Shown here piece after piece: positions 748 through 27,330 of a stretch of 33,152 nucleotides of DNA. The stretch lies in contig JBOIEG010000118.1 of assembly GCA_050740915.1 (NCBI GenBank), forward strand, positions 1 to 33,152, read 5' to 3'. The notes beneath the pieces were generated by a model. It did not search any database. It was not told the DNA's origin and saw only the letters and a program-made list of their open reading frames with translations. Both the position numbers and the translations under genes were made by a program. The stretch's first letter is position 1. Every line of letters starts with the position of its first letter. The DNA is from Gammaproteobacteria bacterium (GTDB taxonomy: Bacteria > Pseudomonadota > Gammaproteobacteria > JBOHHR01).

Positions 748-3057
748 TTAGTAATGTGTCGGTGGAGGCTCGTCTGAAGTTACATTTACTTTTTGGCTTG
801 CGGTTACACTTTTCAATCTTTCCTGCCTTTCACGAATCTCTTTCTCAACATCCTTGTAATATTTGCAGTAGCCCAGCGTCCTCATCTGTTTTTTTATCCT
901 CTCGATTCTTGCTGTTAACAGCTCACCATGCAACACACTAGGCAAGTCATTTGTTTTAATAACACATTCACCTGAGAGCAATTTCACTTTCGCTTGGAAA
1001 TTAGGCTGATTCGTAAGGTCTCTTGCGATCTCGTTTTCCATATCAGCGAATGTCCGGTTTTGATACTTTGGCTGATACTGTCCCGTATCAACTAGAACAG
1101 GCTCTTTCGCGAGAACCACCATTGTATATCTGAGTTCTCTTATCATCTTTACCAATCGAGAAGCAGACTCCATTTCCCGCTTGCTCTCACGTGTAACAGA
1201 ACCAAACAACCCCTTCTTCTGACGGGAATTGATAAATTTAGTTGAGTACTCTTGGTTAATAAAATATGGATCGCCAAACACAGCCGCTTCTTCTTTAAAC
1301 TCTTTCAAATCGTGATGGCCTGGTTCACAATACGGAGGAACCAAAAACCCAAGTTTGATAAAGGGATAAAAGGTTTCCTCACTTGCGTCTTGCTGGGAAA
1401 CAGAGAGCATGTATAGAGCAAGTGGAGGAATGAGAAAGTGAGAACTAGCCTCACTCATACAGCGGTACAAACTCCTATTTAACTCTTCCCTCCCTTGTCG
1501 AATATCACGGGCTGTTAGAGAGATAGTTAAATAACCCCAGTACACGAAGTAATAGTTATCCTGTGCAGTTCTAGCAATTAAGTTTTCAAAGTTTTGTAAA
1601 TACACCTGCGCAAAGTAAGTCGCTCTCACATCGTTATGCCCCCGTTTAACTAAGTGGGTTAGGACATCTGAAACAGGCGCACGCACTGGCTCTTCTCCCG
1701 CTATTTCTTTAGTTGGTGTAGTATCGAAACACTTCGCGAGTACTTTCCCGTCTTCTCCACTGACTCGAAAGACGATCATATTTCCAGCTGCAATAGCAGC
1801 AGTTCTATTAGCCTCATCCAACTGTGAAAGTGTTTGATGGGAAAGTGTTGTGGCGATACGAAATTTACGTGCTTCTGATATAAGAGTGGCGAAATCAGAG
1901 GTCGCGAAGCGCTGGTACTCGTCGCAAAAGAGATTAAACTGGCGACGGCTCGCCTCTGGCTGATCTGTTCTTGAAAACGCAGCCATCAAAAGTTTTCCTA
2001 CCAAGATTGCACCTATAAGCCTTGATGCTTCTTCAAACTGAGGAGACAATTTAACAAGGAGTATTTTCCCGCTGTCCATAACCTCCCGAAAACTTATCGT
2101 TGTCTTAGATTGACAAACAATATTTCTTATCATCGGCTCATCTAAGAAACTGGTAACCTTGTTCATAGTCGAGTCGGTGTAAAGAGCTTTATCCCGTGCA
2201 GACATACTATTGTAAACTTCCCAAAACGACACAATAGAACTATTACTAAGATTCGCAGCCATTCTCTCCCGCACAGAATCACTTGATAAAAGAATTGGAA
2301 TCTCGCTAAACGTTGTGCCAGGACACTCTATAAGGGTACGAGTTACAGCACGCAGTACCTGCATTAAACGCGGTGTGTCTGTCCCTGCCCCCCATACTTT
2401 AGCAAATACGTGAGAGACAAAATTAGCAGTTGAGGCCATTGTTTTTATGTTTCTAGGCTCAGGACACTGAAACAGATTAAGTCCAAAGGGATACTCACCC
2501 TCCATAATATCGAGTAGGACCACATCCTTTAACCTATTCTCAGGAATACCACCAATTACTGTTTTGGTTAAATCGCCGTGCGGCTCAATGAGACACACAC
2601 CTAACCCATGCTTAATGTCTGTCAGAATCAGGTTGGCAAGCAATGTTGATTTACCAGTTCCATTTGCACCTATGATATATAGTCCTTGTTGCCTTGCTTT
2701 CTGTGAGATAGCAACATCAATACCATTTTCTATATCTTTACCAATAATTGAATACAGCCCGCTGAAGTCAGCGTAATCCCCGACTGTTTCTGATCGCCTT
2801 GGTACAGTTCTGATTTCTTCTCTACGTACAGTTCTATTGTTAATCTTTTCTCCATCACGATGATCTTCTCTTTCCTTTCTCTTTATACCCCCCATCTCAA
2901 CCAATTTAGCGAATACTGCCAGTTTTGCCTCTTTTGTTAAAGAACGAATAACCTCCCGAGGGATTGGGCAACGCGGGTGATTTAACGCCTCATCAATGAG
3001 GCGAATCTTCTCGCTTTCTGGTATCGCATCGAATGGGTTTTTTACATCAGTAACCAT
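748..3057 (-). CDS. P-loop NTPase of the FtsK/HerA/TraD (coupling-protein-like) superfamily
   Basis: 769 aa. Walker A is IIGANGTGKSTLL, followed by CLIEPHGDL. Walker B-like motif is LFCDEYQRF, and TLSHQTLSQL lies downstream. This spacing is typical of hexameric DNA-translocase/HerA-type ATPases. Confidence 0.7.
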   Translation of the reverse strand: MVTDVKNPFDAIPESEKIRLIDEALNHPRCPIPREVIRSLTKEAKLAVFAKLVEMGGIKRKEREDHRDGEKINNRTVRREEIRTVPRRSETVGDYADFSGLYSIIGKDIENGIDVAISQKARQQGLYIIGANGTGKSTLLANLILTDIKHGLGVCLIEPHGDLTKTVIGGIPENRLKDVVLLDIMEGEYPFGLNLFQCPEPRNIKTMASTANFVSHVFAKVWGAGTDTPRLMQVLRAVTRTLIECPGTTFSEIPILLSSDSVRERMAANLSNSSIVSFWEVYNSMSARDKALYTDSTMNKVTSFLDEPMIRNIVCQSKTTISFREVMDSGKILLVKLSPQFEEASRLIGAILVGKLLMAAFSRTDQPEASRRQFNLFCDEYQRFATSDFATLISEARKFRIATTLSHQTLSQLDEANRTAAIAAGNMIVFRVSGEDGKVLAKCFDTTPTKEIAGEEPVRAPVSDVLTHLVKRGHNDVRATYFAQVYLQNFENLIARTAQDNYYFVYWGYLTISLTARDIRQGREELNRSLYRCMSEASSHFLIPPLALYMLSVSQQDASEETFYPFIKLGFLVPPYCEPGHHDLKEFKEEAAVFGDPYFINQEYSTKFINSRQKKGLFGSVTRESKREMESASRLVKMIRELRYTMVVLAKEPVLVDTGQYQPKYQNRTFADMENEIARDLTNQPNFQAKVKLLSGECVIKTNDLPSVLHGELLTARIERIKKQMRTLGYCKYYKDVEKEIRERQERLKSVTASQKVNVTSDEPPPTHY

Positions 3058-5430: not shown

Positions 5431-5480
5431 TGTACAAAAAATTTAGGTATTATTCAGGTGTGTAAAAAATTTTGGTATTA
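5431..5480. promoter_or_regulatory. pair of ~21-bp direct repeats in the divergent control region
   Basis: TGTACAAAAAATTTAGGTATTA (5431-5452) and TGTAAAAAATTTTGGTATTA (5461-5480). They are 30 bp apart and begin 23 nt upstream of the minus-strand start at 5408. Confidence 0.4.
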
Positions 5481-5741
5481 CACTGCGATGGAGACGAGAC
5501 CCCGCAACGGCTATGTACCCACTGATTCAGATACTTACGTCGAATGTGATGTCCCCCATTGGTTCCAGCAAGGATTCGGTTCCCCAGCCCCTAACCCGCC
5601 GGCTCTCACTCGTAGTCCGATACCGACCGCCAACCGCCGCTTACAACGAGCGCAGAACCCATATATCCACCCCTTTGTTTAGGCCCTTTTTAAGGAAGTA
5701 AACCAACCCTGAGTCTAGTCCCCACGTAACGCCTTAAGCAC

Positions 5742-7466
5742 ATGAGGAGAGTCATGGAAATCAATGCTGCCCTCCGGAGTCACCAAGTTGAGCGCTCTGA
5801 AGCTCCGACCCAACACACCTTAGTTGAAGCGACACCGGAAGAGATGCCCTTTAAAGGGATCAGTTGGATCGAAAATAAAACCATCTTGACACCAACCGGT
5901 GGCTTTTTGGCAAGCGGGTATACGCATACCCTAAACCCTTACGTTGGTTGTGGGTTTGCTGGGGCACTCTGCGGAACGTTTTGTTATGCCCAGCATCAGC
6001 ACTGGATTGTACGTGGCCGTCCTTGGGGATTCTATGGCGCAAGGCATGATATACGCCAAGCGTATCAGCGCGACTTTGACCGGATAAAGCGGCCATGGCA
6101 AGGAACCTCTCGCCCCTTGCGCGTTTACATGTCCTCCAGCACTGATCCCTATGTACCCCAGGAGAAGAAGCTGTGTCTTACGCTAGCCATCCTGGAAGAA
6201 AGGCAGACCCGTCCCCCTGACGTGCTTGTGATCCAGACTCATACCACGCTCATTAACCGCGATTTTGATCTCATTCAGCCGCTCTCAAAGCGATGTGAGC
6301 TCTGGGTCTCGATAACTTGCGAGACAGATAGGGGTCCCGTGCCCGGTTTCCCCCCACACGCCTCGCGACCGGCCAAGCGGCTGGAGACGCTCAAGCGCTT
6401 TCGCGAGGCCGGTGTGCCAACGCAGGCGACGATCAGTCCGCTCATGCCCTTGGCAGACCCGCAGACGTTTGCGCGTGCCCTCGATGCCGCCTGTGACCGG
6501 GTGGTTATTGATCATTATTTACTCGGCGACGGCAGTCACGGCGCTAGGACCAAGCGAACCAATTTTCTCCAGCTGCTGGAGCGGGCCGGCTTTGGCGAGT
6601 GGGCGAAGGTCGAGAAGATGTGGGAGGTGCACGACCTCCTGGCCGGCGTATTAGGGGCTGAGCGGGTTTTGGTAAGCGCCGAGGGGTTCAATGCGGTCGG
6701 GATCCAACGAAAACCTGTCCCTGCCATGCACATAATCCAAGAGGATAGGAATACCCTACCTAACCTCCCTGATTCACCACAGCCTGCCCAGCAGTGCACG
6801 GACACTGATACATCTACCCCGTCAGCTGAAGATATTCCCATTTTGCGTTTAAACCAGCAAAAAGATGCACCCAAAAATGTGTATGAGTCGCTGCGCGACC
6901 ATCAGCAATTAAAGTCCGAAAAACTGTGGTTACTGCACACCTACCTGCCTCTCATCATTGAGCGCTTCTACGGCACACTTCCCTTGCCAGCCCTGAGCGT
7001 TGAGCCAGCCCGCTTAGGGAATTTAGGTTGGTATCTAGAGAAAGATGGTCTTGCCCTGAACCACCGTATCAATTTGAACTGCATGTATGCCAACCGGCCC
7101 CTCGCTGAGGTTTTACGGACACTTACCCATGAGCTTGGCCACCAATGGCAGCATATCCATGGGAAGAACGGCAAGAACCGCTACCACAGTAACTACCACA
7201 ATAAACAGTTCCAACTCAAGATGCAGTCAATAGGTATCCCCTGCAATAAGCGGGGGGTTTCCCTTGGAATGCAGGAGCCTTTTATAAGTTTTCTCAAGAA
7301 GCTTGGAATCGAGGCAGAGATTTTCCCGTTTAAACAGGAAAACGATGAGTCACCTGTCAGTTCAGGCTCCAGATTAAAACCTTGGGCTTGTAGCTGCACG
7401 CGGGTCTGGGCTTCAGTTCGCGTTGAAGTAAAGGCGACCTGCAGCGAGTGCGGTAATCCATTTTAG
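5742..7466 (+). CDS. fusion protein: SplB/COG1533-like radical SAM domain + SprT-like zinc metalloprotease + C-terminal zinc ribbon
   Basis: 574 aa.
- N-terminal half: LNPYVGCGFAGALCGTFCYAQ (NPYxGC signature, Cys spacing Cx6Cx3C), SSSTDPYVPQE, VLVIQTHTTLINRDFDL, and PHASRPAKRLETLKRFREAGVPTQATISPLMP. These match the DNA-repair-photolyase type of radical SAM enzyme.
- C-terminal part: LTHELGHQWQH (HExxH) plus CSCTRVW...CSECGNPF, as in SprT.
- An alternative start is ATG 5754, after AGGAGA. Confidence 0.75.
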   Translation: MRRVMEINAALRSHQVERSEAPTQHTLVEATPEEMPFKGISWIENKTILTPTGGFLASGYTHTLNPYVGCGFAGALCGTFCYAQHQHWIVRGRPWGFYGARHDIRQAYQRDFDRIKRPWQGTSRPLRVYMSSSTDPYVPQEKKLCLTLAILEERQTRPPDVLVIQTHTTLINRDFDLIQPLSKRCELWVSITCETDRGPVPGFPPHASRPAKRLETLKRFREAGVPTQATISPLMPLADPQTFARALDAACDRVVIDHYLLGDGSHGARTKRTNFLQLLERAGFGEWAKVEKMWEVHDLLAGVLGAERVLVSAEGFNAVGIQRKPVPAMHIIQEDRNTLPNLPDSPQPAQQCTDTDTSTPSAEDIPILRLNQQKDAPKNVYESLRDHQQLKSEKLWLLHTYLPLIIERFYGTLPLPALSVEPARLGNLGWYLEKDGLALNHRINLNCMYANRPLAEVLRTLTHELGHQWQHIHGKNGKNRYHSNYHNKQFQLKMQSIGIPCNKRGVSLGMQEPFISFLKKLGIEAEIFPFKQENDESPVSSGSRLKPWACSCTRVWASVRVEVKATCSECGNPF

Positions 7467-7604
7467 AGAAAGTAACTGGTGAAAGAAAGGAGATGATCGT
7501 AAACCTTACAGTTTTTGTCCTACGCGTAAACCGCGCACACTTCGGCCAACCCACGAGAGCGCGCCAACCCAGCGCGTCTGTTCTTCAACCAGGAGGTTAC
7601 TACT

Positions 7605-8294
7605 GTGGCTAGACGCAAACGCACTATCGTTGATGTTGATGGCAATGTTATCGTTACCGACTCCGACACCACCATACGCACCGCCCTTGAGCAGGCTGGG
7701 ATAGCAAATGATGTGGTAAGCGTGGTAAGCGGTGGTGAGATCATCACCGCAGAGGACTTTGACCGCCCTGCTCCAGCCCACGGGATGTTGACTAACCAGA
7801 CCGATATAGAGAAAGGCGGGGCTACGCTTCGTGAGCGTCTGCTTAATCGGGAGTTCGACCTAATCGCCCGCTTCTTAAGCACCTTTACCGGCAGGAAACG
7901 CTCCCTTGAGCTTGACGATACCTACCTTCTCATCCGCGCTTTCCCTCTCCCCGATTCCTACGCAACGGATTACGTCGATCTCTTGTTTGTCATCAGCGGT
8001 TATTACGACCTGCCTCCTGGAGGTCTGCACATCCCCTCTAAAACCCCCAACCGCGAACAGATAGTCAAGCACCTTGGCGGCCATGTGCAGGTCAACTCAT
8101 CACACGTACTCAACCACACCCCTGCAAGTTACCGTAAAACTGTAGATCAGCTTGCCCAGCTCGGCTGGGACTGGATATGTCTACACCACAAAAATTGGTC
8201 GTGGAAGTTCAACCCCGAGAGCCTCCTCTCAGGAGATTGCCTTTTCAAGTTCGTTGAGAACGTTTTTATAGCACTCTCAGGCAAGCTCAAGTAG
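7605..8294 (+). CDS. ubiquitin-like (beta-grasp) domain fused to an E2/UBC-like domain
   Basis: 229 aa with a GTG start 9 nt after AGGAGG (7590-7595). Residues about 7-52 (TIVDVDGNVIVTDSDTTIRTALEQAGIANDVVSVVSGGEIITAEDF) look like a ThiS/multi-ubiquitin type beta-grasp. They are followed by IEKGG (Gly71-Gly72). The rest is UBC-like: YYDLPPGGLHIP, WDWICLHH (candidate catalytic Cys192), WKFNPESL. The gene is 8 nt upstream of a JAB-E1 gene. Confidence 0.6.
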   Translation: MARRKRTIVDVDGNVIVTDSDTTIRTALEQAGIANDVVSVVSGGEIITAEDFDRPAPAHGMLTNQTDIEKGGATLRERLLNREFDLIARFLSTFTGRKRSLELDDTYLLIRAFPLPDSYATDYVDLLFVISGYYDLPPGGLHIPSKTPNREQIVKHLGGHVQVNSSHVLNHTPASYRKTVDQLAQLGWDWICLHHKNWSWKFNPESLLSGDCLFKFVENVFIALSGKLK

Positions 8295-8302
8295 GGTAAG
8301 CC

Positions 8303-9856
8303 ATGAACAAGCCTACTCATCCTAAGAAAGTCATCATCCGCTTCACTGCCCGTGCTTATGAGCGGGTAAGGCGGCTTCTGCTCAAGGACGAAAATGAGCA
8401 GATGTGTTTTGTCTTTGCCCATGTGGTCGAGACCCCAACCCCAAACCGCCTAGTATTTCTTTGCGATTACGTTTTACAGCTACATGATTCCTGCTACCTT
8501 AAGCGCACCCCAACATCCGTAGTCCTAGACCATCGAGCCAAAAACATAGTCTACGCTCGCTTCGCAGCCAGCACCTATGACGGGCTTCTTAACATCCACT
8601 CGCACCCCTTCGACAAAGGAAGAGTTGCCTTTTCCTCAAAAGATGATGAAGACGATTTGCGTGAAATCGCTTGGCAGTATGAACAACTGCCCCGAGGAAA
8701 AAGAGCCTACGGCAACCCAAGAAAAGTTCATTGCCTTTCTATGGTATTTGGCCAGAGAAGCCTTGACGCAAGAGGTCTTACCTGCCGGCATCTAGGCTTC
8801 CAAGAAGGTCTCTGCCCTCCCTTTTACCGAATTGAACAAGTACAGATTCTTGGCGAGAAACTTTCCGTTATAACGCCAACAGGAGCCACCAATTCACCAA
8901 CTCTTTCTTCTTCTGACCGCATAACGTATGACCGGCAAATTCTGGCGTTTGGAGCAGAAGGGCAAAAAACCCTTGGCTCCCTCCATATCAGCTTAATCGG
9001 AACTGGTGGGATCGGAAGTATCCTTGGAGAAGGTGTCTGCCGTATGGGGGTCAAGACCCTTACCCTCATAGACCACGACCTGTTATCTCCTCACTCGTTA
9101 AATCGTTGGCAAGGAGGTCGTCCTTCCGACATAGGCAAACCCAAAGCGCAGGTTTTGGCAACACACCTCAGGAGGATGTTTCCGGGCATAAAGGTTACAT
9201 CTATTGCAAAGCCCCTCACCCATCCTAAGGCGCTTAAGGCCATTAAGGGCGCAGATTTCCTTCTTGCAGGAGTCGACAACCACCAAGCCCGTTGGCTCTT
9301 GAACAGAATTTCAGCCCAATTCCTCATCCCGTATCTGGACGGAGCAACAGTCATCGCAAAGGGAAAGGGGGAAGCCAACAACCGCATGCAGCTTTTCTAC
9401 CGGTTAGCTGTCGTAGTACCCGGTATAACTGCATGCCTTTCCTGCAGCCAGATCAAATATTGGAATCATCAAGAAGATATTGCTCCCTATCTCTACGATC
9501 CAATAACCCGTTCCCGGCTTCAGGTATCAGGCTACATCCAAGACCATCCAGAGGAACAGGCACCCTCTGTTATGCCGCTTAACATGCTGGTTGCCGCATC
9601 AGTTCTTCTCGAACTTCTAAACCTTGTAACAGACTATGCTCCATTAGCTCGCAATGTGGCAGTTGATCACCTCTCCCCCAATCACACAACAGTGCGATCA
9701 GACACTAAAAACTTCCCTGAAGGCCCGGCCGAGGATTGTATTTCCTGCTTCGCACTTCTGGGTAAAGGCAACAGCGAACCCTTGCCCGTGATCGACATGC
9801 CTGCCCTTACAGAGTCCCAAATTGATAACCATTTCCCCCTTGCTGCCAATGAATAG
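8303..9856 (+). CDS. JAB/MPN metallopeptidase fused to ThiF/MoeB-type E1 adenylyltransferase
   Basis: 517 aa.
- JAMM-like motif: ENEQMCFVFAH ... NIHSHPFDKGRVAFSSKDDEDD (E, HxH, SxxD).
- E1 part: YDRQILAFGAEGQKTLGSLHISLIGTGGIGSILGEGVCRMGVKTLTLIDHDLLSPHSLNRW (Rossmann GxGGxG plus the D.D...NLNRQ-like motif), VDNHQARWLLN, and two CxxC pairs (CLSC, CISC). Confidence 0.8.
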   Translation: MNKPTHPKKVIIRFTARAYERVRRLLLKDENEQMCFVFAHVVETPTPNRLVFLCDYVLQLHDSCYLKRTPTSVVLDHRAKNIVYARFAASTYDGLLNIHSHPFDKGRVAFSSKDDEDDLREIAWQYEQLPRGKRAYGNPRKVHCLSMVFGQRSLDARGLTCRHLGFQEGLCPPFYRIEQVQILGEKLSVITPTGATNSPTLSSSDRITYDRQILAFGAEGQKTLGSLHISLIGTGGIGSILGEGVCRMGVKTLTLIDHDLLSPHSLNRWQGGRPSDIGKPKAQVLATHLRRMFPGIKVTSIAKPLTHPKALKAIKGADFLLAGVDNHQARWLLNRISAQFLIPYLDGATVIAKGKGEANNRMQLFYRLAVVVPGITACLSCSQIKYWNHQEDIAPYLYDPITRSRLQVSGYIQDHPEEQAPSVMPLNMLVAASVLLELLNLVTDYAPLARNVAVDHLSPNHTTVRSDTKNFPEGPAEDCISCFALLGKGNSEPLPVIDMPALTESQIDNHFPLAANE

Positions 9857-10802
9857 TACTCACGAGAAGAAGCAGCCTAACAAAGGCACCAAGCCATATA
9901 TTTTGACCAAGGCCACGGAACGAATCCTAAGAGCCGCCCATTTTTATCGCTTTCTGACAGCTCTTGACTTCGCAACCCTTCTTTACAGCCCTTCCTCTTT
10001 AACCTATGCGCGCGCGCTCTTATCCGAGCTTGCCGGAGGGGAGGATTTCAAGACCAACGAGTATCTCTATAGATTCAAGTTGCCCAACGGGACATCAAAT
10101 GGCAGCAGAATATATACCCTCGGAGTTAAAGGCAGAAACTATTTAGTAAGTGAGCTGGGCTTACCTGCTGATTGGTATTTCAGACCCCATAAATTGAAGT
10201 ATCTTAGCTATTGTCAGGCTGATCATAACCTCAGCCTTGCCCGTTTTCAAATTTCAGCCCAAGCCTGGGCTAAGAAGCAACCCAATTACCGCATCGCGCA
10301 CATCCGTATTTGTTACGAACTTGCCCAAACAGCACCTATTATCGAGATCACCACACAAGGCAAAACAGAAAGACTCAAAGTCATACCGGACGCGTGGGTA
10401 TGTTTTCAAAAACTCAGGGACGGCAGTGGTGAGCATGAACGTTTTATGCCAGTCCTGCTGGAGCTAGATCGCGGAACAGAGCACCAGCTCCGCTTCAAAC
10501 AACATGTGCGCTCCAAGATCGCCTTTATTCAAACGGGCGCCTATAGGCAGCTCTTCCACACCAATGCAGTAGTGATCGCCTACGTGACCACAGGACAAAC
10601 ACCTGACTATCAGCGCACAAGGAGAAAAGCCATTTGCCGCTTCACAATGGAAGTATTAAAAGAACTCGGAAAGGAATCCTGGGCTTCCATATTTCGCATC
10701 ACCAGCACTAGTCTTGAGCATATCTATGAGACGCCTTTTTTTGATGCACCCATCTGGTACCGGCCTGATTCGGACACGCCAGTGCCCCTTTTCACTCCCT
10801 AA
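9849..10802 (+). CDS. Replic_Relax (replication-relaxation) family-like protein
   Basis: The ORF-track frame opens at 9822, but the first ATG is 9849 (MNSTHEKK). It overlaps the E1 stop (9854-9856) by 8 nt. ILRAAHFYRFLTALDFATLLYSPSSLTYARALLSELA resembles the N-terminal wHTH signature of Replic_Relax proteins found on plasmids. Confidence 0.5.
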   Translation: MNSTHEKKQPNKGTKPYILTKATERILRAAHFYRFLTALDFATLLYSPSSLTYARALLSELAGGEDFKTNEYLYRFKLPNGTSNGSRIYTLGVKGRNYLVSELGLPADWYFRPHKLKYLSYCQADHNLSLARFQISAQAWAKKQPNYRIAHIRICYELAQTAPIIEITTQGKTERLKVIPDAWVCFQKLRDGSGEHERFMPVLLELDRGTEHQLRFKQHVRSKIAFIQTGAYRQLFHTNAVVIAYVTTGQTPDYQRTRRKAICRFTMEVLKELGKESWASIFRITSTSLEHIYETPFFDAPIWYRPDSDTPVPLFTP

Positions 10803-13067: not shown

Positions 13068-13089
13068 ATGTTTGTTGAAACTTTGGATT

Positions 13090-13374
13090 ATGCAAATGAC
13101 CACCAAAACCATGCATATCTCTCTGCCTGGGTCCCTGATCGAATCGGCAAAGCTACAGGTAGAGGAGGGAAAATTTAGCAATGTCAGCGATTATGTGCGC
13201 TCCCTCATTCGCGAGGATTTACGAAGGCACGAAGAACAAAAGCTAGAACAGATGCTACTCGTTGGGGTGCGCTCCGAGCGTGGGATGGAAGTTGGCTCAA
13301 AGGAATGGAAGGAGTTTCGCAAACGCTTGGTAAGACAAAGCCCGCAACAAAGTAAAAAAACCCAAGAAGCATGA
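13090..13374 (+). CDS. parD: ParD-family (RHH/CopG) antitoxin
   Basis: MQMTTKTMHISLPGSLIESAKLQVEEGKFSNVSDYVRSLIREDLRR matches the ParD/COG3609 pattern. The ORF-track frame opens at a TTG (13072). The ATG at 13090 or 13096 is the more likely start. The stop overlaps the toxin start (ATGA). Confidence 0.8.
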   Translation: MQMTTKTMHISLPGSLIESAKLQVEEGKFSNVSDYVRSLIREDLRRHEEQKLEQMLLVGVRSERGMEVGSKEWKEFRKRLVRQSPQQSKKTQEA

Positions 13375-13703
13375 AAAGATGGAGGGTACTCACCAAACGA
13401 CAAGCCGAAGAAGACACTAACGAAATCTACTCCTACATTGCCCGGGATAGCCCCCAAGCCGCAGAGGGCTTTTTAGATGCTATAGAACAAGCCTCTTCAA
13501 TTCTCTCTACTACCCCTGAGATTGGCTCCTCTCGTTATTTTCACCATCCTGAGCTACACGGACTTCGCTTCTACCCCCTCAAAAGGTATGAAAAATACCT
13601 TTTGTTTTATCGCACTGTGGAAGAAGAGCACGTTGTTGAAATAGCGCGCATCATCCATGGCGCACGGGACTTACCAACACTCTTTGGTCAGGAACAAAAC
13701 TGA
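13371..13703 (+). CDS. parE: ParE/RelE-family toxin
   Basis: 110 aa. QAEEDTNEIYSYIARDSPQAAEGFLDAIEQ ... YLLFYRTVEEEHVVEIARIIHGARD is the typical ParE layout. It is translationally coupled to parD. Confidence 0.8.
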   Translation: MKRWRVLTKRQAEEDTNEIYSYIARDSPQAAEGFLDAIEQASSILSTTPEIGSSRYFHHPELHGLRFYPLKRYEKYLLFYRTVEEEHVVEIARIIHGARDLPTLFGQEQN

Positions 13704-13857: not shown

Positions 13858-14073
13858 TCAGGACGGTACCCCAAACTTACTTTTCAAAGCCTCAATGACC
13901 ACCTCAGTCATTGATATACCCCTTTTCTTACTTTCACCAGCCCAATGACGGCGTAAAGATAGAGGGACTTTGATACAAAGGTTTACCATCTCTTCAGCGA
14001 TTTCTTCTGGTTTTATGGTATTATGGTTTACATCCTTTCTGGCTTCCTTAATTATCTCACTGTACTTACTCAT
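13858..14073 (-). CDS. small RHH partition adaptor (ParG-like)
   Basis: 71 aa. The C-terminal VPLSLRRHWAGESKKRGISMTEVVIEALKSKF is ribbon-helix-helix-like. It overlaps the stop of the upstream small ParA by 4 nt. Confidence 0.55.
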   Translation of the reverse strand: MSKYSEIIKEARKDVNHNTIKPEEIAEEMVNLCIKVPLSLRRHWAGESKKRGISMTEVVIEALKSKFGVPS

Positions 14074-14675
14074 TTCAGTATTCCTACTATCTCATCACCT
14101 AAATTTTCATAGTCCGTCCAGAAAACCTTTTGCTTGTAATTATCTACGTCCTTAACCGTCGTACCTGCCAGCCCCGCTTTTGAATAAGCTACAGATCTCC
14201 GGATCATGGTCTGGAAAACTGGTATACCAGAATTCTGTAAATCTTGTTTTATGGTATCCGCTTCTTTATTGGGAGCTGGGGGAACGATAGTTAGAAGGAC
14301 TCGGTATGCCGTATCACTAATGTTTCTCGTAAGATCTAACATAGGTTGTAGTGATACAACATCAGGGGTAGTAGGTAGAATTAGCAGGTCGCATCCTTTA
14401 GATAATTCTTTTAGATCATCCGTATCAGGTCTTGCAGGGGTATCTATCAAAACATAATCGTGACCAGCCACCATTTTCACAGCTTGGCGTTGATCCACAA
14501 TATTGAAGGGTAGCGAGCCCCTCTTAGCCCAGTTAATACAGGTTCTGTTTTGATCACCATCTACGACAAGCACCTTAGCCATTCCAGATAAAAATCTGGC
14601 CAAGTGTATGGTAGATGTGCTTTTACCTACCCCGCCTTTAAAGCCAGTGATGGTTATTATCTTCATTTCTGGCAT
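14070..14675 (-). CDS. parA: small ParA/ParF-type partition ATPase
   Basis: 201 aa with the deviant Walker A TGFKGGVGKSTSTIHLARFL, then VVDGDQN, then IDTPA. Confidence 0.8.
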   Translation of the reverse strand: MPEMKIITITGFKGGVGKSTSTIHLARFLSGMAKVLVVDGDQNRTCINWAKRGSLPFNIVDQRQAVKMVAGHDYVLIDTPARPDTDDLKELSKGCDLLILPTTPDVVSLQPMLDLTRNISDTAYRVLLTIVPPAPNKEADTIKQDLQNSGIPVFQTMIRRSVAYSKAGLAGTTVKDVDNYKQKVFWTDYENLGDEIVGILK

Positions 14676-14876: not shown

Positions 14877-15629
14877 ATGATTTTTTCCATAGCATCACAG
14901 AAAGGCGGCGTTGGTAAGACCTCATCAAGCATTTCCCTCTCAGCTGGTATAGCTCGCAAAGGCAAAAAAGTACTCCTCATTGATATTGATTCGCAAGCAA
15001 ACAGCAGCAAAGTATTACTGCCAAACTACCAACAACTGCAAAAACAGCAGACAATCTTTACAACAATTCTCGACCGAAAGGCACTTCAAATCCATAAAAC
15101 ACAACTTCCAAATCTCGATATCGTTCCGTCCCATATTCTCCTTTCTAATACTGACGTTGAATTAACCACCGCCATTGACCATCGGGAAGAGCGGTTAAGA
15201 CGAGAGCTTGATCTCATCAAGCATAACTACGACTTTGTATTTATCGATTGCCCACCTACCCTTTCGTGGCTCACGATTAATGCTATGACAGCCTCGGATA
15301 AAGTAATTGTTATTGTTTCCCCTGGGTATTTTGAACTTGATTCCATTGTTCAAATCAGCAAAACCATCAAAGAAGTGAAGGGGTATTTTAATCCAAATAT
15401 CGAGCTTTCCGGGTTTCTCTTTACGATGAGCGACCCTACTGTGAACAGTAAGACATCTTTGCAAATCCTCCGACAAACATACACCAGATCTGTCTTTAAC
15501 ACGGTTATTCCACGCAATACTGACCTTAGAGACGCGCACTTTGAGAAAAAGGATATCTTCTCTTTCAATCCCAACGCTGCTGCTGCACAGGCATATGCCA
15601 AATTAATAAATGAGCTCTTTCAATTATGA
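14877..15629 (+). CDS. parA: ParA/Soj-type partition ATPase
   Basis: 250 aa. ASQKGGVGKTSSSISLSAG (deviant Walker A), LIDIDSQANSS, FIDCPP. Confidence 0.85.
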   Translation: MIFSIASQKGGVGKTSSSISLSAGIARKGKKVLLIDIDSQANSSKVLLPNYQQLQKQQTIFTTILDRKALQIHKTQLPNLDIVPSHILLSNTDVELTTAIDHREERLRRELDLIKHNYDFVFIDCPPTLSWLTINAMTASDKVIVIVSPGYFELDSIVQISKTIKEVKGYFNPNIELSGFLFTMSDPTVNSKTSLQILRQTYTRSVFNTVIPRNTDLRDAHFEKKDIFSFNPNAAAAQAYAKLINELFQL

Positions 15630-18486: not shown

Positions 18487-20025
18487 ATGAAACGCTTTCT
18501 TTATATCCTAAGTACAGTTTTAAGTTTTCTTGGCAGCTGCTTTTCGAAGACTCATTCATTACACAATGCCCGCTTTGCCCGCCTTGATGAACTAACAAGT
18601 CTTGTGAGCCATACCCTTGATGAGGGAGGATTGCTTTTGGGAATAAGCTCATTCAACCAAATTCTTCGAGTACGTCTTACCAAGACACGCCCAGAGCTGG
18701 GCAACACACTCATCGTGGCGCCAACCCGCGGTGGCAAGGGACTACTTGCTGTGAGTCAACTTTTAACTTGGCCGCATTCAGTTGTGGTTAATGACATCAA
18801 AGGCGAGCTCTATGACCAGACCGCTGGCTACCGGGCAACTCTTGGCCCAGTCTTTTGTCTTGATCCACGGGGTTTGGGCCATTGCTTCGATCCTCTGCAT
18901 ACCCGCACTGACGAGGATGAGTTATATGCAGCAGCAAAAAACCTGTTGCATGAACCCCATGAGACTGATGGTAAGCCGTTTACCGAGCGGGCTATTAAAA
19001 TGCTCACCCTCATGTGGCTTGCCGCCAGAAAGCAAAACGAGCATTCTTATGAGCAAACCCGCCTGCTGCCATTTACCAGAAATTTAGCTGATCTTGGTTT
19101 AAATCGCGCTGTCCCAATAATCCACGCGATCTCACCCGCCTTAGCTACCCGTATGTTTGATGGGGAATACATACCAGAGCATGACTACAATGAGAATAAA
19201 TATTTGTCTTCATCCTGGGAATCCTTAACAGCCCGTCTCTACCCTCTTCTAACCGAAAAAGTTGCCCGCTGTTTTAATGGCTCGGATTTCACCGGAGCGG
19301 ACATCATCACCTCCACTAAACCTATTACAATTTATTTATGTTGGCCTGAGTCCGCGCTTCTTGCCAAAGCGCCTCTCATTCGGCTGGTGTGGGAATCTTT
19401 GATTGGGCAGATGCTTGATACCTATGACAGAGCCAAAGGGGAGGCCTGCCATCCGGTATTACTCCTTCTTGATGAGGCAGGCACCGTTACTCTTCCCAGT
19501 CTTCCCCAATATGTCGCAACGGTTGCAGGCCGGGGCATTTGCGTGTGGGCTGCCATTCAAGACCTCTCGCAGCTTGAGCTTTATGGCATGCATAAGGCCA
19601 AAACCATCAAAAACAATATGGATACTAAAATCTATTACCGACAAGCATCAAGTGAAACCGCAGAGTACCTCGAGCGCTCTCTAGGCAAACAATCAGGCTT
19701 CGCCCACTCCCAAACACTACACGATGGACAAGAGGAGAGTCAGGGACTTTCAGAGCATGCAGTACCCCTTCTTACGGCCAGAGACATCAATGAGCTTAAT
19801 CATGATGAAATTATCGTTTTTTTCTCCAACCACAAGCCCTTCAGAGCCAAAAGAATGGACTGGCGAGCCTTTCCAATCCTGACACAACGACGCGCAATTC
19901 CCCCTCCCAAACTTGCCACCCTTCCAGAACTTGAGTCAAACCCTTTCTACTTAAGAACAAAAAGCACGTGGAAGGGGAGAGCCATTGACCCAGACGATCT
20001 TAATCCTTATGAGAAGCTAAATTGA
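18487..20025 (+). CDS. type IV coupling protein (VirD4/TraG family)
   Basis: 512 aa. LIVAPTRGGKGLLAVSQLLTWPHSVVVNDIKGELYDQTAGYR matches the VirD4 Walker A region. LLLLDEAGTV is the Walker B. Confidence 0.85.
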   Translation: MKRFLYILSTVLSFLGSCFSKTHSLHNARFARLDELTSLVSHTLDEGGLLLGISSFNQILRVRLTKTRPELGNTLIVAPTRGGKGLLAVSQLLTWPHSVVVNDIKGELYDQTAGYRATLGPVFCLDPRGLGHCFDPLHTRTDEDELYAAAKNLLHEPHETDGKPFTERAIKMLTLMWLAARKQNEHSYEQTRLLPFTRNLADLGLNRAVPIIHAISPALATRMFDGEYIPEHDYNENKYLSSSWESLTARLYPLLTEKVARCFNGSDFTGADIITSTKPITIYLCWPESALLAKAPLIRLVWESLIGQMLDTYDRAKGEACHPVLLLLDEAGTVTLPSLPQYVATVAGRGICVWAAIQDLSQLELYGMHKAKTIKNNMDTKIYYRQASSETAEYLERSLGKQSGFAHSQTLHDGQEESQGLSEHAVPLLTARDINELNHDEIIVFFSNHKPFRAKRMDWRAFPILTQRRAIPPPKLATLPELESNPFYLRTKSTWKGRAIDPDDLNPYEKLN

Positions 20026-22778: not shown

Positions 22779-24692
22779 ATGGATAAGGAATCTAACCAGT
22801 TTACCATTCAAAGCAAGGAATTATCACAGCTTGAACAACTGCTAAATAAAGAAATGGCAGGTGCCCAAGTGGTACTTCTTACAGGCAGCACTTCACTTTG
22901 GCACATGAACGAAGGTTTGTTACGAAATGTAGCGACAGGCCGCCTCGCCGATCCTCAAAGAACGAAGATCAACAGTGCTTCTCTTTATGAACGGAACGAT
23001 TATTGGGAGAAAAGAGGCACGCGACCGGATAAACGGCTCCATGAGTGGCAGACTAACATGGATACTTATCTCAAGAAGCAACTTCAAGATGAAGAGAAAC
23101 GTAATCTGTTGGAAAGAATTCTGAAACGACATAATCAAACTCCTGATGAGGTAGTCGTAAACGCGGAAACTATCTATAACAGACTCATGGTAGATCAAAA
23201 AGGAGATGTTGAATTTTTTGCCAGAAGACTGAGTAGAGAAGATATTAAACAACACGCAGAAGTCATCCAGGAATTCGCGGGTATCTATGGGCAGAATTCA
23301 AGCAAAATAGCCAAAATACTTGCCGAGGGAATAATAAACGCTAACGACCAGCCTTGCGCACTTATCGACTCAGCCCAAAGAGAGTTAAGCGATGAAGAGC
23401 GAATTATACTTGAGACACTTGACCTGCACGCGCAAGCCAAAGAGAAAAAATATCTAGGGCAAATCGCGAAAGCTCAAACAAGGTATCAGGAGCAGCCGGC
23501 TTTACGAGAGGTGGCGCAGCAAACAAAAAGTGAGCCCCATAAAGCCAGGGAAGAACTTAGGCAATTGGTGGAGGAAGACGTCGGAGTTTGCACAGAAACA
23601 GATAAGGGGCAAGACGCATACTTCGCGGATACCGAAAACGCGATTTTTGGTGTGTTTGACGGAGTAGGAAGTTATAGGCATAGTGGTGAAGCTGCTAATA
23701 TAGCTAGTGAGCACATTAACGTCGCCCTAGCAGGCATTGAAAGCAATCTGGATCTTGATAAAACAAAACATACAGTAAGGGACGCGCTTATACAAGTAAG
23801 TGAGGAAATAAATGAAGAGGTAGTAACACGATATAAAATCGTAGAAGAAGACATAAGGAAAAACATTGCAGGAAATTTATCAGACGACGATTTTGACAAT
23901 AAATATAAACCAAGAACTGAATATGATAATAGTTCCATAAGCAAATGGATAAAAGGAGAACTTGACGCAGCTGAGCCAACAGAACGTTTGTATAATGGTT
24001 TAACAAGCTATATCCATGGTTGGATCAAGAAACAAGTAACTATGGCTACAACCGCCTCCGTAGTCAAACTGTGGCAGGGAGAAAATGGAGATAAACAAGC
24101 AATCATCGCTAATGCAGGAGACAGCAGGGTTTATGTATATAAGAATAAAGAGGATAAACTGGAGATAATAACTATCGATGATAACTTTCTCTACGAGGTT
24201 GTGGATGGACATAAAGCAAGAGAGATACAGAAGGCATTAGGCAATGGAGCAAAGATCAAGGATGTTCTGGCAGAAGAGACGGTTGTACTTAAAGAATCAA
24301 ATCCACTACACAAGAAGTTGTGGACATTTCATCATGGCACGATATGGAATGAAAAAGATTATCGTTTTTGGCAAAATGGAGAAGTAGAAGTACCGCTTAA
24401 AAACATTAGCTCTTTTGCAATGACGAGGCAAATCCCATTTGTAGGTACAGAACCAACTATAAAGCAAATAAAAATCGCATCAGGTGATAGGATTGTAATG
24501 ACGACTGATGGTGTTCACGACAATTTACGCACATCAGAAATTGAAGAAATAATTAGAAACAACCCAGACCCAATCGAGGCAGCTAATGCGGCAAAAAGAA
24601 AATTAGACGACATACGAGAATTAGCGCGGACATTGAAAGGCAGAAGCTATAAAGCAGACGATATAACGTTTGTTGTTATCGCCATAAACTAA
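22779..24692 (+). CDS. PP2C-family Ser/Thr phosphatase with an unassigned ~280-aa N-terminal region
   Basis: 637 aa. PP2C motifs appear in order: FGVFDGVGSYRHSGEAANIAS, ANAGDSRVYVY, MTTDGVHDNL, ADDITFVVIAI. Confidence 0.8.
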   Translation: MDKESNQFTIQSKELSQLEQLLNKEMAGAQVVLLTGSTSLWHMNEGLLRNVATGRLADPQRTKINSASLYERNDYWEKRGTRPDKRLHEWQTNMDTYLKKQLQDEEKRNLLERILKRHNQTPDEVVVNAETIYNRLMVDQKGDVEFFARRLSREDIKQHAEVIQEFAGIYGQNSSKIAKILAEGIINANDQPCALIDSAQRELSDEERIILETLDLHAQAKEKKYLGQIAKAQTRYQEQPALREVAQQTKSEPHKAREELRQLVEEDVGVCTETDKGQDAYFADTENAIFGVFDGVGSYRHSGEAANIASEHINVALAGIESNLDLDKTKHTVRDALIQVSEEINEEVVTRYKIVEEDIRKNIAGNLSDDDFDNKYKPRTEYDNSSISKWIKGELDAAEPTERLYNGLTSYIHGWIKKQVTMATTASVVKLWQGENGDKQAIIANAGDSRVYVYKNKEDKLEIITIDDNFLYEVVDGHKAREIQKALGNGAKIKDVLAEETVVLKESNPLHKKLWTFHHGTIWNEKDYRFWQNGEVEVPLKNISSFAMTRQIPFVGTEPTIKQIKIASGDRIVMTTDGVHDNLRTSEIEEIIRNNPDPIEAANAAKRKLDDIRELARTLKGRSYKADDITFVVIAIN

Positions 24693-24750: not shown

Positions 24751-26442
24751 ATGAAAGAAGTATATGTCAATAAAAGACTTGTAAAACTACCAGATAAATG
24801 TTGGAAAGATGGAGCAGAGGCCAAGATACATAAAATCGATGCGGAGATAGTTTTCAGTACTGGCATGGTTCGAGAACAACAAGTTCTTAAACTTTTCCGC
24901 GAACCAGACGACCCTCGTTATCAACATGACCAAAACGCACGCAACGCCGCCGAGAAGCGCCTCAAGTATCATCGGCTTTACGCCAAGCTAGAAAATTTTC
25001 CTGAAAATCTGCCCCAGCGGGTTATTGTTCCGCAGGAGATCGCTAGAGACAGCAATGGCACAATCGTGGGGTACTCCATGCAATTTATGGCAAAAGCCGA
25101 GTTATTTAAAGAATATGTGCATAATAGAGATTTCCGCGACGGTTTAGGACGAAATCATTCAGATATTGTGAATAATATAATTCTTCCGGTGTTTAGAGAC
25201 CTGCATCATACGATATCTGAGCTTCATAAGAAGGATGTTATAATTGGAGATTTTAATGATGCCAATGTGCTCATAGAAGAAGACAGGGCGTATATCATTG
25301 ATGCGGATAGTTTCCAATTTGGAATATATCCATGTGAGTTATACAAGCCTGAATTTCTTGATCCAGCACTTATGAATCAGCGATCTGAGGGCATCGTAAA
25401 ATTATACGGAAAAAAGTATACGGCAGATTCTGACTGGTACGTCTACAATATCATGCTCATGCAAAATCTGCTTTTCGTCGGACCGTACGCTGGGAAAGTG
25501 ATATCGCATAACAAAAAGATTACAGAAAAGATACGCCGGGAGCAGCACTTAAACATCTTTCATCCGGATGTGAGATATTCAAACAAAGACAATTTCCATC
25601 ATAAAATTTTACCGGATGATTTGCGCGAATACTTCTTTAAGGTTTTTGGGGAAGACAAACGCGGGAATTTCCCGGCATGCCTACTGGACATGTGCTGGAA
25701 AAAATGCACAAGTTGCGGAGTAGAACACGCGAGGGAAAGATGTCCTAATTGTTATCGAACAACGACTCAAACAGTCACGTCAGGTTCGGCTCAGGCAGGG
25801 GTGCCAGTTTCCCCGACTTCACTTCCTAGTGCTAAGTGGCCGCTCCAGTCTCGGCACATAGGATCAACAGTATCTCAAAGAGTCACATCTCAATCATCAC
25901 GACAAGCCCGCGCGCAAAGACCCGCTTTGAGAGCGACAGACAATCTGAAAGGCTTTATAAAAAGACACAAAATTGGGATAGCCGCCGCCGCAATTTTCGG
26001 GTACGTTATTACGATGAGTCCATTTGAAGACCGTATTACACAGCTTGAACGGGCCCTACAAGAGCGTACCGGAGTCTTTGATTGGAACGCACATAATGAA
26101 TTAAGGCATCTTCATATCACCAATAATCCGCCTCACCTGAGAAAATCCATGGAGCACTCTAATGTCATTTTGCAACACTCATACATGGATGGCTATATTC
26201 TAAATATTCTAAGCGAGTGGCAAATAGACAAAAACACCTCCGCGGCGCGCGCCAATCTTCGGAGGAGCGCTCGACATTTTCCCGATCTGCGATTCATTGC
26301 AGCAGCGTGTTTTTTGAAGATTGGTGATTTGTACGTCTTTGAAGGCAATATAAATGAGGCAAAATTTTCTTATCTAAAGGTGGCTGAAGACAAGTCCTCT
26401 GATATGACGCGATACCGTGTGCTTGCAGAGGAAAGACTATAG
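24751..26442 (+). CDS. eukaryotic-like Ser/Thr protein kinase with zinc ribbon, one TM helix and a helical C-terminal domain
   Basis: 563 aa. QVLKLF (Lys), catalytic loop VIIGDFNDANVLI (DxxxxN), IIDADSFQF (DFG-like), FLDPAL. Then CTSCGVEHARERCPNCY and a TM segment IGIAAAAIFGYVITM. Confidence 0.7.
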   Translation: MKEVYVNKRLVKLPDKCWKDGAEAKIHKIDAEIVFSTGMVREQQVLKLFREPDDPRYQHDQNARNAAEKRLKYHRLYAKLENFPENLPQRVIVPQEIARDSNGTIVGYSMQFMAKAELFKEYVHNRDFRDGLGRNHSDIVNNIILPVFRDLHHTISELHKKDVIIGDFNDANVLIEEDRAYIIDADSFQFGIYPCELYKPEFLDPALMNQRSEGIVKLYGKKYTADSDWYVYNIMLMQNLLFVGPYAGKVISHNKKITEKIRREQHLNIFHPDVRYSNKDNFHHKILPDDLREYFFKVFGEDKRGNFPACLLDMCWKKCTSCGVEHARERCPNCYRTTTQTVTSGSAQAGVPVSPTSLPSAKWPLQSRHIGSTVSQRVTSQSSRQARAQRPALRATDNLKGFIKRHKIGIAAAAIFGYVITMSPFEDRITQLERALQERTGVFDWNAHNELRHLHITNNPPHLRKSMEHSNVILQHSYMDGYILNILSEWQIDKNTSAARANLRRSARHFPDLRFIAAACFLKIGDLYVFEGNINEAKFSYLKVAEDKSSDMTRYRVLAEERL

Positions 26443-26763: not shown

Positions 26764-27330
26764 TTATGTTCCCCCCGTGTTGATGTAGCGGTATAACGTT
26801 GCTCTGGAAACATTGAGCATTTTGCAAATCTCATCGATGGTATTGTTTTTGTCATTATAAAGCGATTGCGCCAGGGTTATTTTTTTTGGTGTATTGAGGG
26901 ATTTCGCTTTTGGTCTGCCGCCTAACCTTCCTCGCGCTCTAGCAGCTTGCAAGCCTGCGTTTGTCCGTTCTCTAATTACATCTCTCTCAAATTCCGCCAG
27001 TGCTCCAAAAATATAAAAGACGAGTTTCCCTCCTGATGTTGTTGTATCAATATTCTCCGTAATACTCTTAAACCCGATTTTTCTATTGTTAAGTTTTGTA
27101 ACTGTTTCAATGAGATGCTTGAGGGAGCGGCCAAGCCTATCCAGTCGCCAGACAACGATCGTATCTCCTTCTCGAACATACTTAAGCGCTTCTTCTAATC
27201 CAATGCGCTCTGCTTTTGCTCCACTTGCAGTATCTGTGAAGATACGGCTAACACCTATTTTCTCAAGCGCATATTTTTGAAGATTTAATGTTTGATCTGA
27301 TGTGGAAACACGAGCATAACCAATAAGCAT
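26764..27330 (-). CDS. serine recombinase, Hin/Gin invertase-like (resolvase/invertase family)
   Basis: 188 aa. MLIGYARVSTSDQ (catalytic Ser), VVWRLDRLGRSLKHL, ALAEFERDVIRERT, GRLGGRPK, and a C-terminal HTH (VSRATLYRYI). By eye it is closer to Hin/Gin than to gamma-delta resolvase. Confidence 0.9.
   Translation of the reverse strand: MLIGYARVSTSDQTLNLQKYALEKIGVSRIFTDTASGAKAERIGLEEALKYVREGDTIVVWRLDRLGRSLKHLIETVTKLNNRKIGFKSITENIDTTTSGGKLVFYIFGALAEFERDVIRERTNAGLQAARARGRLGGRPKAKSLNTPKKITLAQSLYNDKNNTIDEICKMLNVSRATLYRYINTGGT

Follow-up and report, generated by a model that had tools for sequence, protein, structure and literature searches.

A predicted Bub-like ubiquitin-type conjugation module with a Ubl-E2 precursor gene on a conjugative-plasmid backbone

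Analysis of a 33,152-nt contig (JBOIEG010000118.1 of assembly GCA_050740915.1; its whole length is referred to below as the window) revealed two adjacent genes on the forward strand, 7605..8294 and 8303..9856. They probably form a Bub-like ubiquitin-type conjugation module on a conjugative-plasmid backbone, in which a fused ubiquitin-like modifier (Ubl) and conjugating enzyme (E2) would be cut apart after Gly71; we place the probability of this reading at roughly 0.68. The 229-aa product of the first gene would be the precursor, a 71-residue beta-grasp Ubl fused to an E2 of the ubiquitin-conjugating (UBC) fold. The JAMM domain of the second protein would cut it after Gly71, yielding a 158-residue E2 and, in equal amount, a Ubl with the C-terminus ...Glu-Lys-Gly, and the ThiF-type activating (E1) domain of the same protein would adenylate Gly71; both steps are proposed on homology to the characterised Bub system and on comparative evidence. 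The Ubl would then probably move onto Tyr411 as an oxyester, as on Tyr370 of BubCD, and from there to Cys192 as a thioester and to lysines of targets, a route that we infer from the conserved residues. The features of the two genes are as follows.

7591..7596, plus strand: Shine-Dalgarno-like AGGAGG, 8 nt 5' of the GTG start (read from the sequence)
7605..7817, plus strand: ubiquitin-like beta-grasp domain, residues 1-71, the predicted mature Ubl (AlphaFold2 topology, Foldseek, invariant Lys70-Gly71)
7815..7820, plus strand: codons of Gly71 and Gly72, with the predicted scissile bond between them (homolog conservation, Bub precedent)
7818..8294, plus strand: UBC-fold E2 domain, residues 72-229 and stop codon, with an insertion between strand 4 and the Cys loop (AlphaFold2, Foldseek, hhalign)
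8178..8180, plus strand: codon of Cys192 (WICLH), the predicted E2 catalytic residue (conservation, alignments)
8303..8872, plus strand: JAB/JAMM peptidase domain, approximately residues 1-190, the predicted processing enzyme (invariant JAMM residues)
8900..9856, plus strand: E1 (ThiF-type) adenylation domain, with the Tyr411 codon at 9533..9535 and a CxxC...CxxC zinc motif (Pfam ThiF, 1.2e-40)

The idea of a Ubl-E2 precursor is not new. The architecture was described in 2006 by Iyer, Burroughs and Aravind as operon type "6e", in which a JAB domain is fused to an E1 and one or more beta-grasp domains are sometimes fused to an E2/RWD-like domain; the E2-like domains were taken as inactive for want of a Cys, and the operon also has a Zn-binding protein (PMC1779556). 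Ye, Gong, Chambers and Corbett renamed the 6e operons Bub in 2024 (PMC11601596; PDB 9ea4, 9eae and 9eav). In Type I Bub ("6E.1"), BubAB is cleaved by the JAB domain of BubCD at a site that Edman sequencing placed immediately behind a conserved Gly, and JAMM mutants are inactive; the E1 of BubCD uses a crossover-loop Tyr (Tyr370), which is required for conjugation; the E2 uses Ser-x-His plus an Asp, and the pathways run entirely without a catalytic Cys; the third gene, BubE (DUF6527), encodes a serine protease (PMC11601596). A preliminary description of the window had proposed that the JAB domain of the second gene processes a self-contained precursor. This proposal holds in kind, having strong comparative support and a demonstrated counterpart in BubAB and BubCD, but its exact cut site is probably one residue off, and the idea is no longer new: precursor cutting by JAB has not been an open matter since the 2024 work, and to this extent the finding mostly rediscovers known biology.

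The open reading frame (ORF) 7605..8294 (229 codons, 229 aa) is a real gene. Its GTG start agrees with the homologs, all of which open with MA[KR]R, and 8 nt separate its stop codon from the ATG of 8303..9856. The sequence landmarks of the preliminary description were all found in place: the tail K-G-G-A at residues 70-73 (Lys70-Gly71-Gly72-Ala73), PPGG at 137-140, HIP at 142-144 and Cys192 within WICLHH. The unusually long spacer, given there as about 45 residues, does amount to 45 residues between Pro144 and Trp190, and it is a genuine insertion, ~30 residues of which are missing from the homologs P0033 and P0039. The protein has only two Cys, 192 and 212. Scans against Pfam (E <= 0.1), NCBIfam, PADLOC and PHROGs matched no model, and the sole match in a single-sequence search of PDB, a thymidylate kinase, was rejected as a chance match.

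AlphaFold2 modelling of the whole Ubl-E2 protein, based on a 39-sequence alignment, gave a mean predicted local distance difference test score (pLDDT) of 86.8. The beta-grasp domain is predicted confidently at residues 6-64, with its elements in beta-grasp order (strands 6-11 and 14-19, helix 24-30, strands 39-42, 45-48 and 61-64); residues 65-74 are coil and hold Gly71-Gly72, and the 7-residue tail that follows the last strand ends at Gly71. The domain thus has what is looked for in a Ubl modifier, namely a beta-grasp fold and a flexible tail ending in the Gly on which stand-alone relatives end. A UBC-like helix plus meander comes next, consisting of an 18-residue helix (75-92) and strands 100-103, 107-114, 123-129 and 140-144, which bears out the N-terminal UBC helix that the preliminary description had placed after the junction. 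The stretch at residues 60-80, for which a single integral fold would have spoken against a linker, comprises the last beta-grasp strand, the tail and the start of the E2 helix.

Foldseek searches with the whole two-domain model returned only beta-grasp proteins (ThiS, the N-terminal domain of NuoG and a TGS domain) and missed the E2. Predicted alone, the E2 domain reached a pLDDT of 89.2 and a predicted TM-score of 0.86, and its top PDB match was Citrobacter BubB (9eae_C; probability 0.93, TM 0.46/0.54, E = 0.05), followed by the Bil E2 BilB (8tyz_C), the ubiquitin E2 variant (UEV) domain of Vps23 and UbcH7. These top fold-level matches all point to a UBC fold for the model, though each E-value is weak. 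DSSP assignment of the E2 model gives the canonical E2 order of helix, four-strand meander, YPxxPP flap and Cys loop; Y133 and P138 are invariant in the alignment with distant relatives, and G140 is found in 81 of 84 family representatives. The HPN motif that precedes the catalytic Cys of canonical E2s is absent from the window protein, which has T-P-N, of the type T/S-P-N, at residues 147-149 (8043..8051), at HPN spacing from the PP motif; Asn149 is shared by 52/84 representatives and His147 occurs in 8/84.

These data raise a key question: where would the precursor be cut? The protein holds four GG dipeptides (43-44, 71-72, 139-140 and 158-159), so a lone GG says little. The 39 close homologs (47-67% identity, ~220-230 aa each, all metagenomic) show that Lys70-Gly71 is invariant (39/39), whereas 29 have Ala, nine Gly and one Thr at position 72; since the invariant pair also sits at the domain boundary, the junction is non-random. 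Natural split forms, found next to more distant relatives of the JAB-E1 gene, point to the same residue. L007 encodes a 75-aa stand-alone Ubl ending in IIKG* and a separate 164-aa E2, L008 a 65-aa Ubl (MARRRSIVIDG...QRKG*) and a separate 156-aa E2, and L010 a 71-aa Ubl ending in FTKG* and a 130-aa E2. Two further stand-alone Ubls, P0172 (KKG|GIHA) and P0216 (EKG|CCV), have just 3-4 residues past KG, an ending typical of precursors needing trimming. The conservation of Gly71, the variability of residue 72 and the stand-alone Ubls that end at that Gly make it possible to suggest that the cut most likely falls at Gly71|Gly72, giving a 71-aa Ubl (7.55 kDa) and a 158-aa E2 (18.13 kDa). The cut after Gly72 and the ~72-aa Ubl of the preliminary description are not favoured, and the conservation of GG expected there did not appear: it is present in only 9/39 close homologs and in 7/39 fused representatives. 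The conserved junction feature is one small residue, here Gly71.

The partner gene 8303..9856 encodes a 517-aa protein with a ThiF domain (Pfam, 1.2e-40). In a 45-sequence alignment of the JAB-E1 family that reaches down to 24% identity, the JAMM residues E32, H99, H101, S111 and D114 are invariant, as are the nucleotide-binding glycines, R268, D346 and Tyr411. With the profile built from this family, the best match was Citrobacter BubCD, aligned along both of its domains (E = 6.8e-81), and Uba1 came second at 1.8e-30. The JAMM residues of the window protein align with E28, H91, H93 and D104 of the BubCD peptidase domain, the roles of which are described in PMC11601596. In the E1 domain, GYIQD aligns over RGYITG of BubCD and places Tyr411 over Tyr370, and the crossover loop holds no Cys, none occurring between residues 382 and 478. 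The four conserved Cys of the domain, C378/C381 (9434..9445) and C479/C482 (9737..9748), make up a CxxC...CxxC pair of the kind typical of ThiF/MoeB-type structural zinc.

Another important question is whether Cys192 takes the place of the catalytic Ser of Bub. It is the only invariant Cys of the E2 domain, being kept throughout a 20-sequence alignment that includes relatives of ~30% identity, and it is present in 80/84 family representatives; the exceptions are P0166 (Gly), P0177 (Pro) and P0180 and P0185 (both Asp), which may be inactive, UEV-like versions of the E2. Among nearby positions, Trp200 is found in 79/84, Asp211 in 73/84 and His194, two residues on, in 59/84 representatives. Comparison of the window family with the E2 of L010 (130 aa, WLCVH), a protein assigned to Prok-E2_E in a precomputed Pfam listing, aligned the two Cys with each other in hhalign (probability 96%, E = 2e-9, 124 columns). 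The Prok-E2_E model itself (PF14462) is matched only weakly by three of 20 relatives (best E = 0.0019), and the window protein, with no match at E <= 0.1, does not reach its gathering threshold. A profile of 95 Cys-type E2s was also aligned with a profile of the five Ser-type BubBs from loci L009, L024, L025, L027 and L029, which neighbour distant E1 relatives and all carry W-S-R-H, with a probability of 91% and E = 1e-6 over 131 columns. By these alignments, Cys192 and the Bub Ser lie in the same loop, at the same or an adjacent position. The pattern W-I-C-x-H against (Q)-W-S-R-H, each followed by a conserved Trp and Asp, suggests a direct equivalence of Cys and Ser, and Cys192 may well be the exact positional counterpart of the Bub Ser. 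The Cys of the ICLHH element, which the preliminary description had likened to that of canonical E2s, therefore stands as the predicted catalytic residue on account of its conservation and its location in the loop of Bub's catalytic Ser.

How closely the locus follows Bub can be judged from its similarities and differences. As in Type I Bub, the gene of a Ubl-E2 fusion precedes that of a JAB/JAMM-E1 fusion (BubAB and BubCD), the JAMM residues are conserved, and the E1 is of the homodimer type with an invariant crossover-loop Tyr and no Cys in the loop. BubCD is the closest solved relative of the E1, and BubB is the best structural match of the E2, which likewise lacks the C-terminal helix pair of canonical E2s; a conserved Gly stands at the junction, where the cut by BubCD was shown, and the genes are on mobile elements. 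Unlike Type I Bub, the window E2 has an invariant Cys (WICLH) in place of the catalytic Ser (WSRH); the companion His is only partly kept, and the Asp that Bub has five residues after the YP motif is without a counterpart. There is one beta-grasp domain here as opposed to three in Citrobacter BubA, although single-domain Bub Ubls exist too, and the CxxC...CxxC motif of the window E1 contrasts with Citrobacter BubCD, which has no Cys in the aligned stretch (GSTLSDRL). A SprT-like gene, sometimes fused to a radical-SAM domain, lies upstream here, and the gene of BubE/DUF6527 is absent: no Pfam match to DUF6527 (PF20137) was found among the larger ORFs of the window, and phmmer with BubE as the query returned nothing significant among all window ORFs of at least 40 aa, none of which has the CxCxC motif. 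Across all fetched loci, jackhmmer placed BubE directly 3' of the E1 in 6/6 Ser-type loci, and no Cys-type locus had it. Thus, the locus is not a strict Type I Bub operon, since two defining features, an E2 with a catalytic Ser and a gene for BubE, are missing. By analogy, it would nevertheless work like one, Type I Bub being its closest relative. It belongs to a rare sister clade of Bub that combines a tyrosine-type E1 with a Cys-type E2 and lacks BubE. Because the Bub catalogue was drawn from operons that contain DUF6527, the Cys-type clade falls outside it. What is added here to the picture of Bub is the Cys-type E2, the retained tyrosine-type E1, the lack of BubE and the SprT-like gene upstream in a conjugative-plasmid backbone.

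Several observations weigh against this reading. The junction residue is not universal: among the 39 fused representatives it is Gly in 27, Ala in ten and neither in two, and a 242-aa fused relative (P0159, 5237..5965 of L006) has a junction devoid of Gly (...RPVSLA|ASKARF), so the Ubl may end in Ala in some systems. The JAB domain is retained in L007 and L008, where the Ubl is already free; precursor cutting is therefore not its only role, and it probably also removes conjugates. In the comparison of the two E2 types, hhalign put the Bub Ser one residue before Cys192, with low local confidence in the catalytic loop; MAFFT misaligned this loop; and hhalign against a single BubB sequence aligned the strand region only, as did the E2 profile against PDB, where the link to BubB was weak (E = 0.03-0.2; Foldseek, E = 0.05). 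We know of no system in which an E1 Tyr hands its Ubl over to an E2 Cys.

The alternatives differ in the step of the pathway that they change. Eukaryotic ubiquitin ends in GG, the window protein carries Gly71-Gly72 and the same dipeptide occurs in nine close homologs, so the JAB domain might cut after Gly72 and leave a 72-residue Ubl with a ubiquitin-like Gly-Gly end; with Ala at position 72 in 29 of the 39 homologs and Thr in one, and with stand-alone Ubls that finish in a single Gly after Lys or Arg, we consider this unlikely, and the Bub cut, too, directly follows a single conserved Gly (PMC11601596). The fusion might never be cut at all, its beta-grasp domain serving the E2 permanently for docking or regulation and some other moiety being activated. 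The linker is short (~10 residues), no separate Ubl gene was seen beside the operon in the window, and the E2-like domains of 6e were regarded in 2006 as inactive ubiquitin-binding modules (PMC1779556). Such a permanent fusion is hard to square with the split forms whose Ubl ends at the junction Gly, with the invariant JAMM site of the partner protein and with the demonstrated cleavage of BubAB (PMC11601596), and it appears quite improbable.

The activation step bears on the same point: an E1 needs a free C-terminal carboxylate, which an uncut fusion would not offer at Gly71. A third alternative leaves cutting and activation in place and gives Cys192 a structural part, with transfer through another residue or directly from the E1. 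The four representatives without the Cys (P0166, P0177, P0180 and P0185) would fit it, as would the presence of His194, the counterpart of Bub His335, in only 59/84 representatives, and Bub functions without any catalytic Cys (PMC11601596). A merely structural residue is nonetheless improbable for one of just two Cys in the protein that is kept in 80/84 representatives across ~30% identity, lies in the same loop as the catalytic residue of BubB and that of a Prok-E2_E protein, and has Trp200 and Asp211 co-conserved nearby. The module might, finally, belong to a ThiS/MoaD-type sulfur-carrier or cofactor pathway in which JAMM frees the C-terminal Gly of the carrier from a fusion: ThiF and MoeB are families that the E1 matches, the model of the beta-grasp domain is similar to ThiS, and a JAMM enzyme (DRJAMM) is known to cleave a MoaD-MoaE fusion (PMC8832034). 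Given that the fused partner here is a UBC fold with a conserved Cys, that BubCD, which conjugates proteins, is by far the nearest solved relative, that the setting is a plasmid and that Pfam and NCBIfam scans of the neighbours found no rhodanese, MoaE, ThiG or other biosynthetic gene nearby, this would be very surprising. A Bub-like conjugation module with a precursor cut after Gly71 is thus the reading that we retain.

Other known systems share single elements with this module. The 6e operon type has in common with it the JAB-E1 protein, the beta-grasp Ubl domains sometimes fused to a C-terminal E2/RWD-like domain and the sporadic occurrence on mobile elements, but its E2-like domains are without a conserved Cys and its Zn-binding protein (now DUF6527/BubE) is missing here. 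Bil (BilABCD) and the type II cyclic-oligonucleotide-based antiphage signalling system (CBASS; Cap2/Cap3) resemble it as bacterial E1/E2/JAB systems in which JAB exposes or removes a C-terminal tail and the E2 forms a Cys thioester. Bil differs in that Ubl, E2 and JAB each have a gene of their own and in that its E1 consists of two domains and includes a mobile Cys domain; type II CBASS lacks a Ubl and has its E2 fused to the E1, the fusion protein conjugating a CD-NTase, whereas the window E2 is fused to a Ubl. Membership in either was rejected. The E1-E2 models of PADLOC match only E1 residues ~213-340, and no CD-NTase was found in the library scans of the window genes. The eukaryotic ubiquitin precursors (UBA52, RPS27A and polyubiquitin) likewise have an N-terminal Ubl freed by a peptidase that exposes a C-terminal Gly; here, by contrast, the Ubl is joined to the E2 of its own pathway, the peptidase belongs to the same polypeptide as the E1, and the tail reads K-G in place of RGG.

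The distribution of the family is narrow. When 1.84 billion representative proteins were searched exhaustively with the family profile, only 106 family members or clusters emerged at E <= 0.001, comprising ~38 stand-alone E2s that start at approximately profile position 72-75, ~44 long or fused proteins and a remainder that includes stand-alone Ubls and fragments. No Ubl-E2 relatives were found in 185,579 species-representative genomes scanned with the Ubl-E2 alignment, and a 17-sequence E1 alignment recovered from such genomes only distant relatives in metagenome-assembled genomes (MAGs; <=38% identity). The close family (>45% identity) was found only in metagenome contigs. PLSDB gave no match, either by blastn with the operon or by tblastn with the Ubl-E2 protein. 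The two source labels, one of a Gammaproteobacteria MAG and one of a Nitrososphaera MAG, conflict, as expected for a plasmid binned by chance.

The neighbouring genes place the module in a mobile setting.

5742..7466, plus strand: radical-SAM domain fused to a SprT-like HExxH metalloprotease, with a Cys-rich C-terminal tail (NCBIfam, Pfam)
9822..10802, plus strand: Replic_Relax-family gene (Pfam Replic_Relax, 2.3e-5, just under the cut-off)
748..3057 (minus), 18487..20025 (plus), 14070..14675 (minus), 14877..15629 (plus), 13072..13703, 26764..27330 (minus) and 32186..32806: plasmid-type genes, taken jointly

The window contains two type IV coupling-protein homologs, two ParA-type ATPases, a ParE toxin with a ribbon-helix-helix partner, a resolvase and transposases, including one of the DDE type. 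The contig (47% GC) looks like a conjugative plasmid or an integrative and conjugative element; no terminal overlap that would prove circularity was found on it. Members of the close family show the order SprT-like (sometimes radical-SAM-fused), Ubl-E2, JAB-E1, Replic_Relax and a 769-aa coupling-protein homolog; in L003, L014 and L017, the E1 gene is followed by the Replic_Relax gene and then by the coupling-protein homolog. As listed, with TTG as its start, the Replic_Relax ORF of the window shares 35 nt (9822..9856) with the end of the JAB-E1 gene. Adjoining genes at 22779..24692 and 24751..26442 encode a PP2C-type phosphatase and a protein with a weak protein-kinase match; the distant Cys-type relative L011 adjoins FHA, kinase, VWA and PP2C genes, which may be coincidence.

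The gene directly upstream, 5742..7466, matches radical-SAM families of NCBIfam (PA0069, Rv2578c and 'mobile pair B') and SprT-like in Pfam at 2.9e-5, just under the cut-off, and its C-terminal tail carries CxC...CxxC. The Cys of its radical-SAM site are spaced C-x6-C-x3-C in GCGFAGALCGTFC, not in the usual CxxxCxxC. A PDB sequence search with the SprT-like domain gave nothing useful. A SprT-like homolog lies directly 5' of the Ubl-E2 gene in the window and in L003, L004, L005, L016 and L018, that of L003 being a stand-alone 249-aa protein; a further contig has a 569-aa gene in this position, and the SprT-like gene is absent in L001/L013 and L012. It is a possible third component of the module. 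The linkage may also reflect common descent and not function, because the contigs share one plasmid backbone, and the protein could be a deconjugating enzyme that replaces BubE, an effector or unrelated plasmid cargo. Further upstream, the small ORF 5458..5682, 5' of the SprT-like gene, has no Pfam match and shares Y[VI]ECDVPHW with the 63-aa ORF 7247..7438 of L001, which occupies the corresponding place there (40% over 42 aa by tblastn, E = 1.5e-5).

These results bear on how ubiquitin-type cascades are built. With a Tyr on the E1 and a Cys on the E2, the family may be a hybrid of the all-oxyester Bub and the thioester cascades, in which the E1 Tyr hands the Ubl to the E2 Cys; we offer this tentatively, at somewhat less than even odds. 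If it is true, the family would be a distinct third type of Bub-like system, in which a SprT-like metalloprotease replaces the serine protease BubE and the module is built into a plasmid transfer region. No paper on a Cys-type, SprT-linked Bub-like system was found in a literature search whose coverage left out most subscription journals. By analogy with the ubiquitin- and SUMO-guided proteases SPRTN and Wss1, the Ubl might even mark a DNA-bound plasmid protein, such as a relaxase-like one, for removal by the SprT-like protein, a scenario that we regard as speculative and rather unlikely. We know of no phage-defence phenotype yet found for Bub, and the steady position in the plasmid transfer backbone, beside a SprT-like protease, provides a concrete alternative setting in which the role of the module can be sought. 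A natural system with a Tyr-type E1 and a Cys-type E2 would also be a useful comparison of oxyester and thioester cascades and may help to establish which of them came first.

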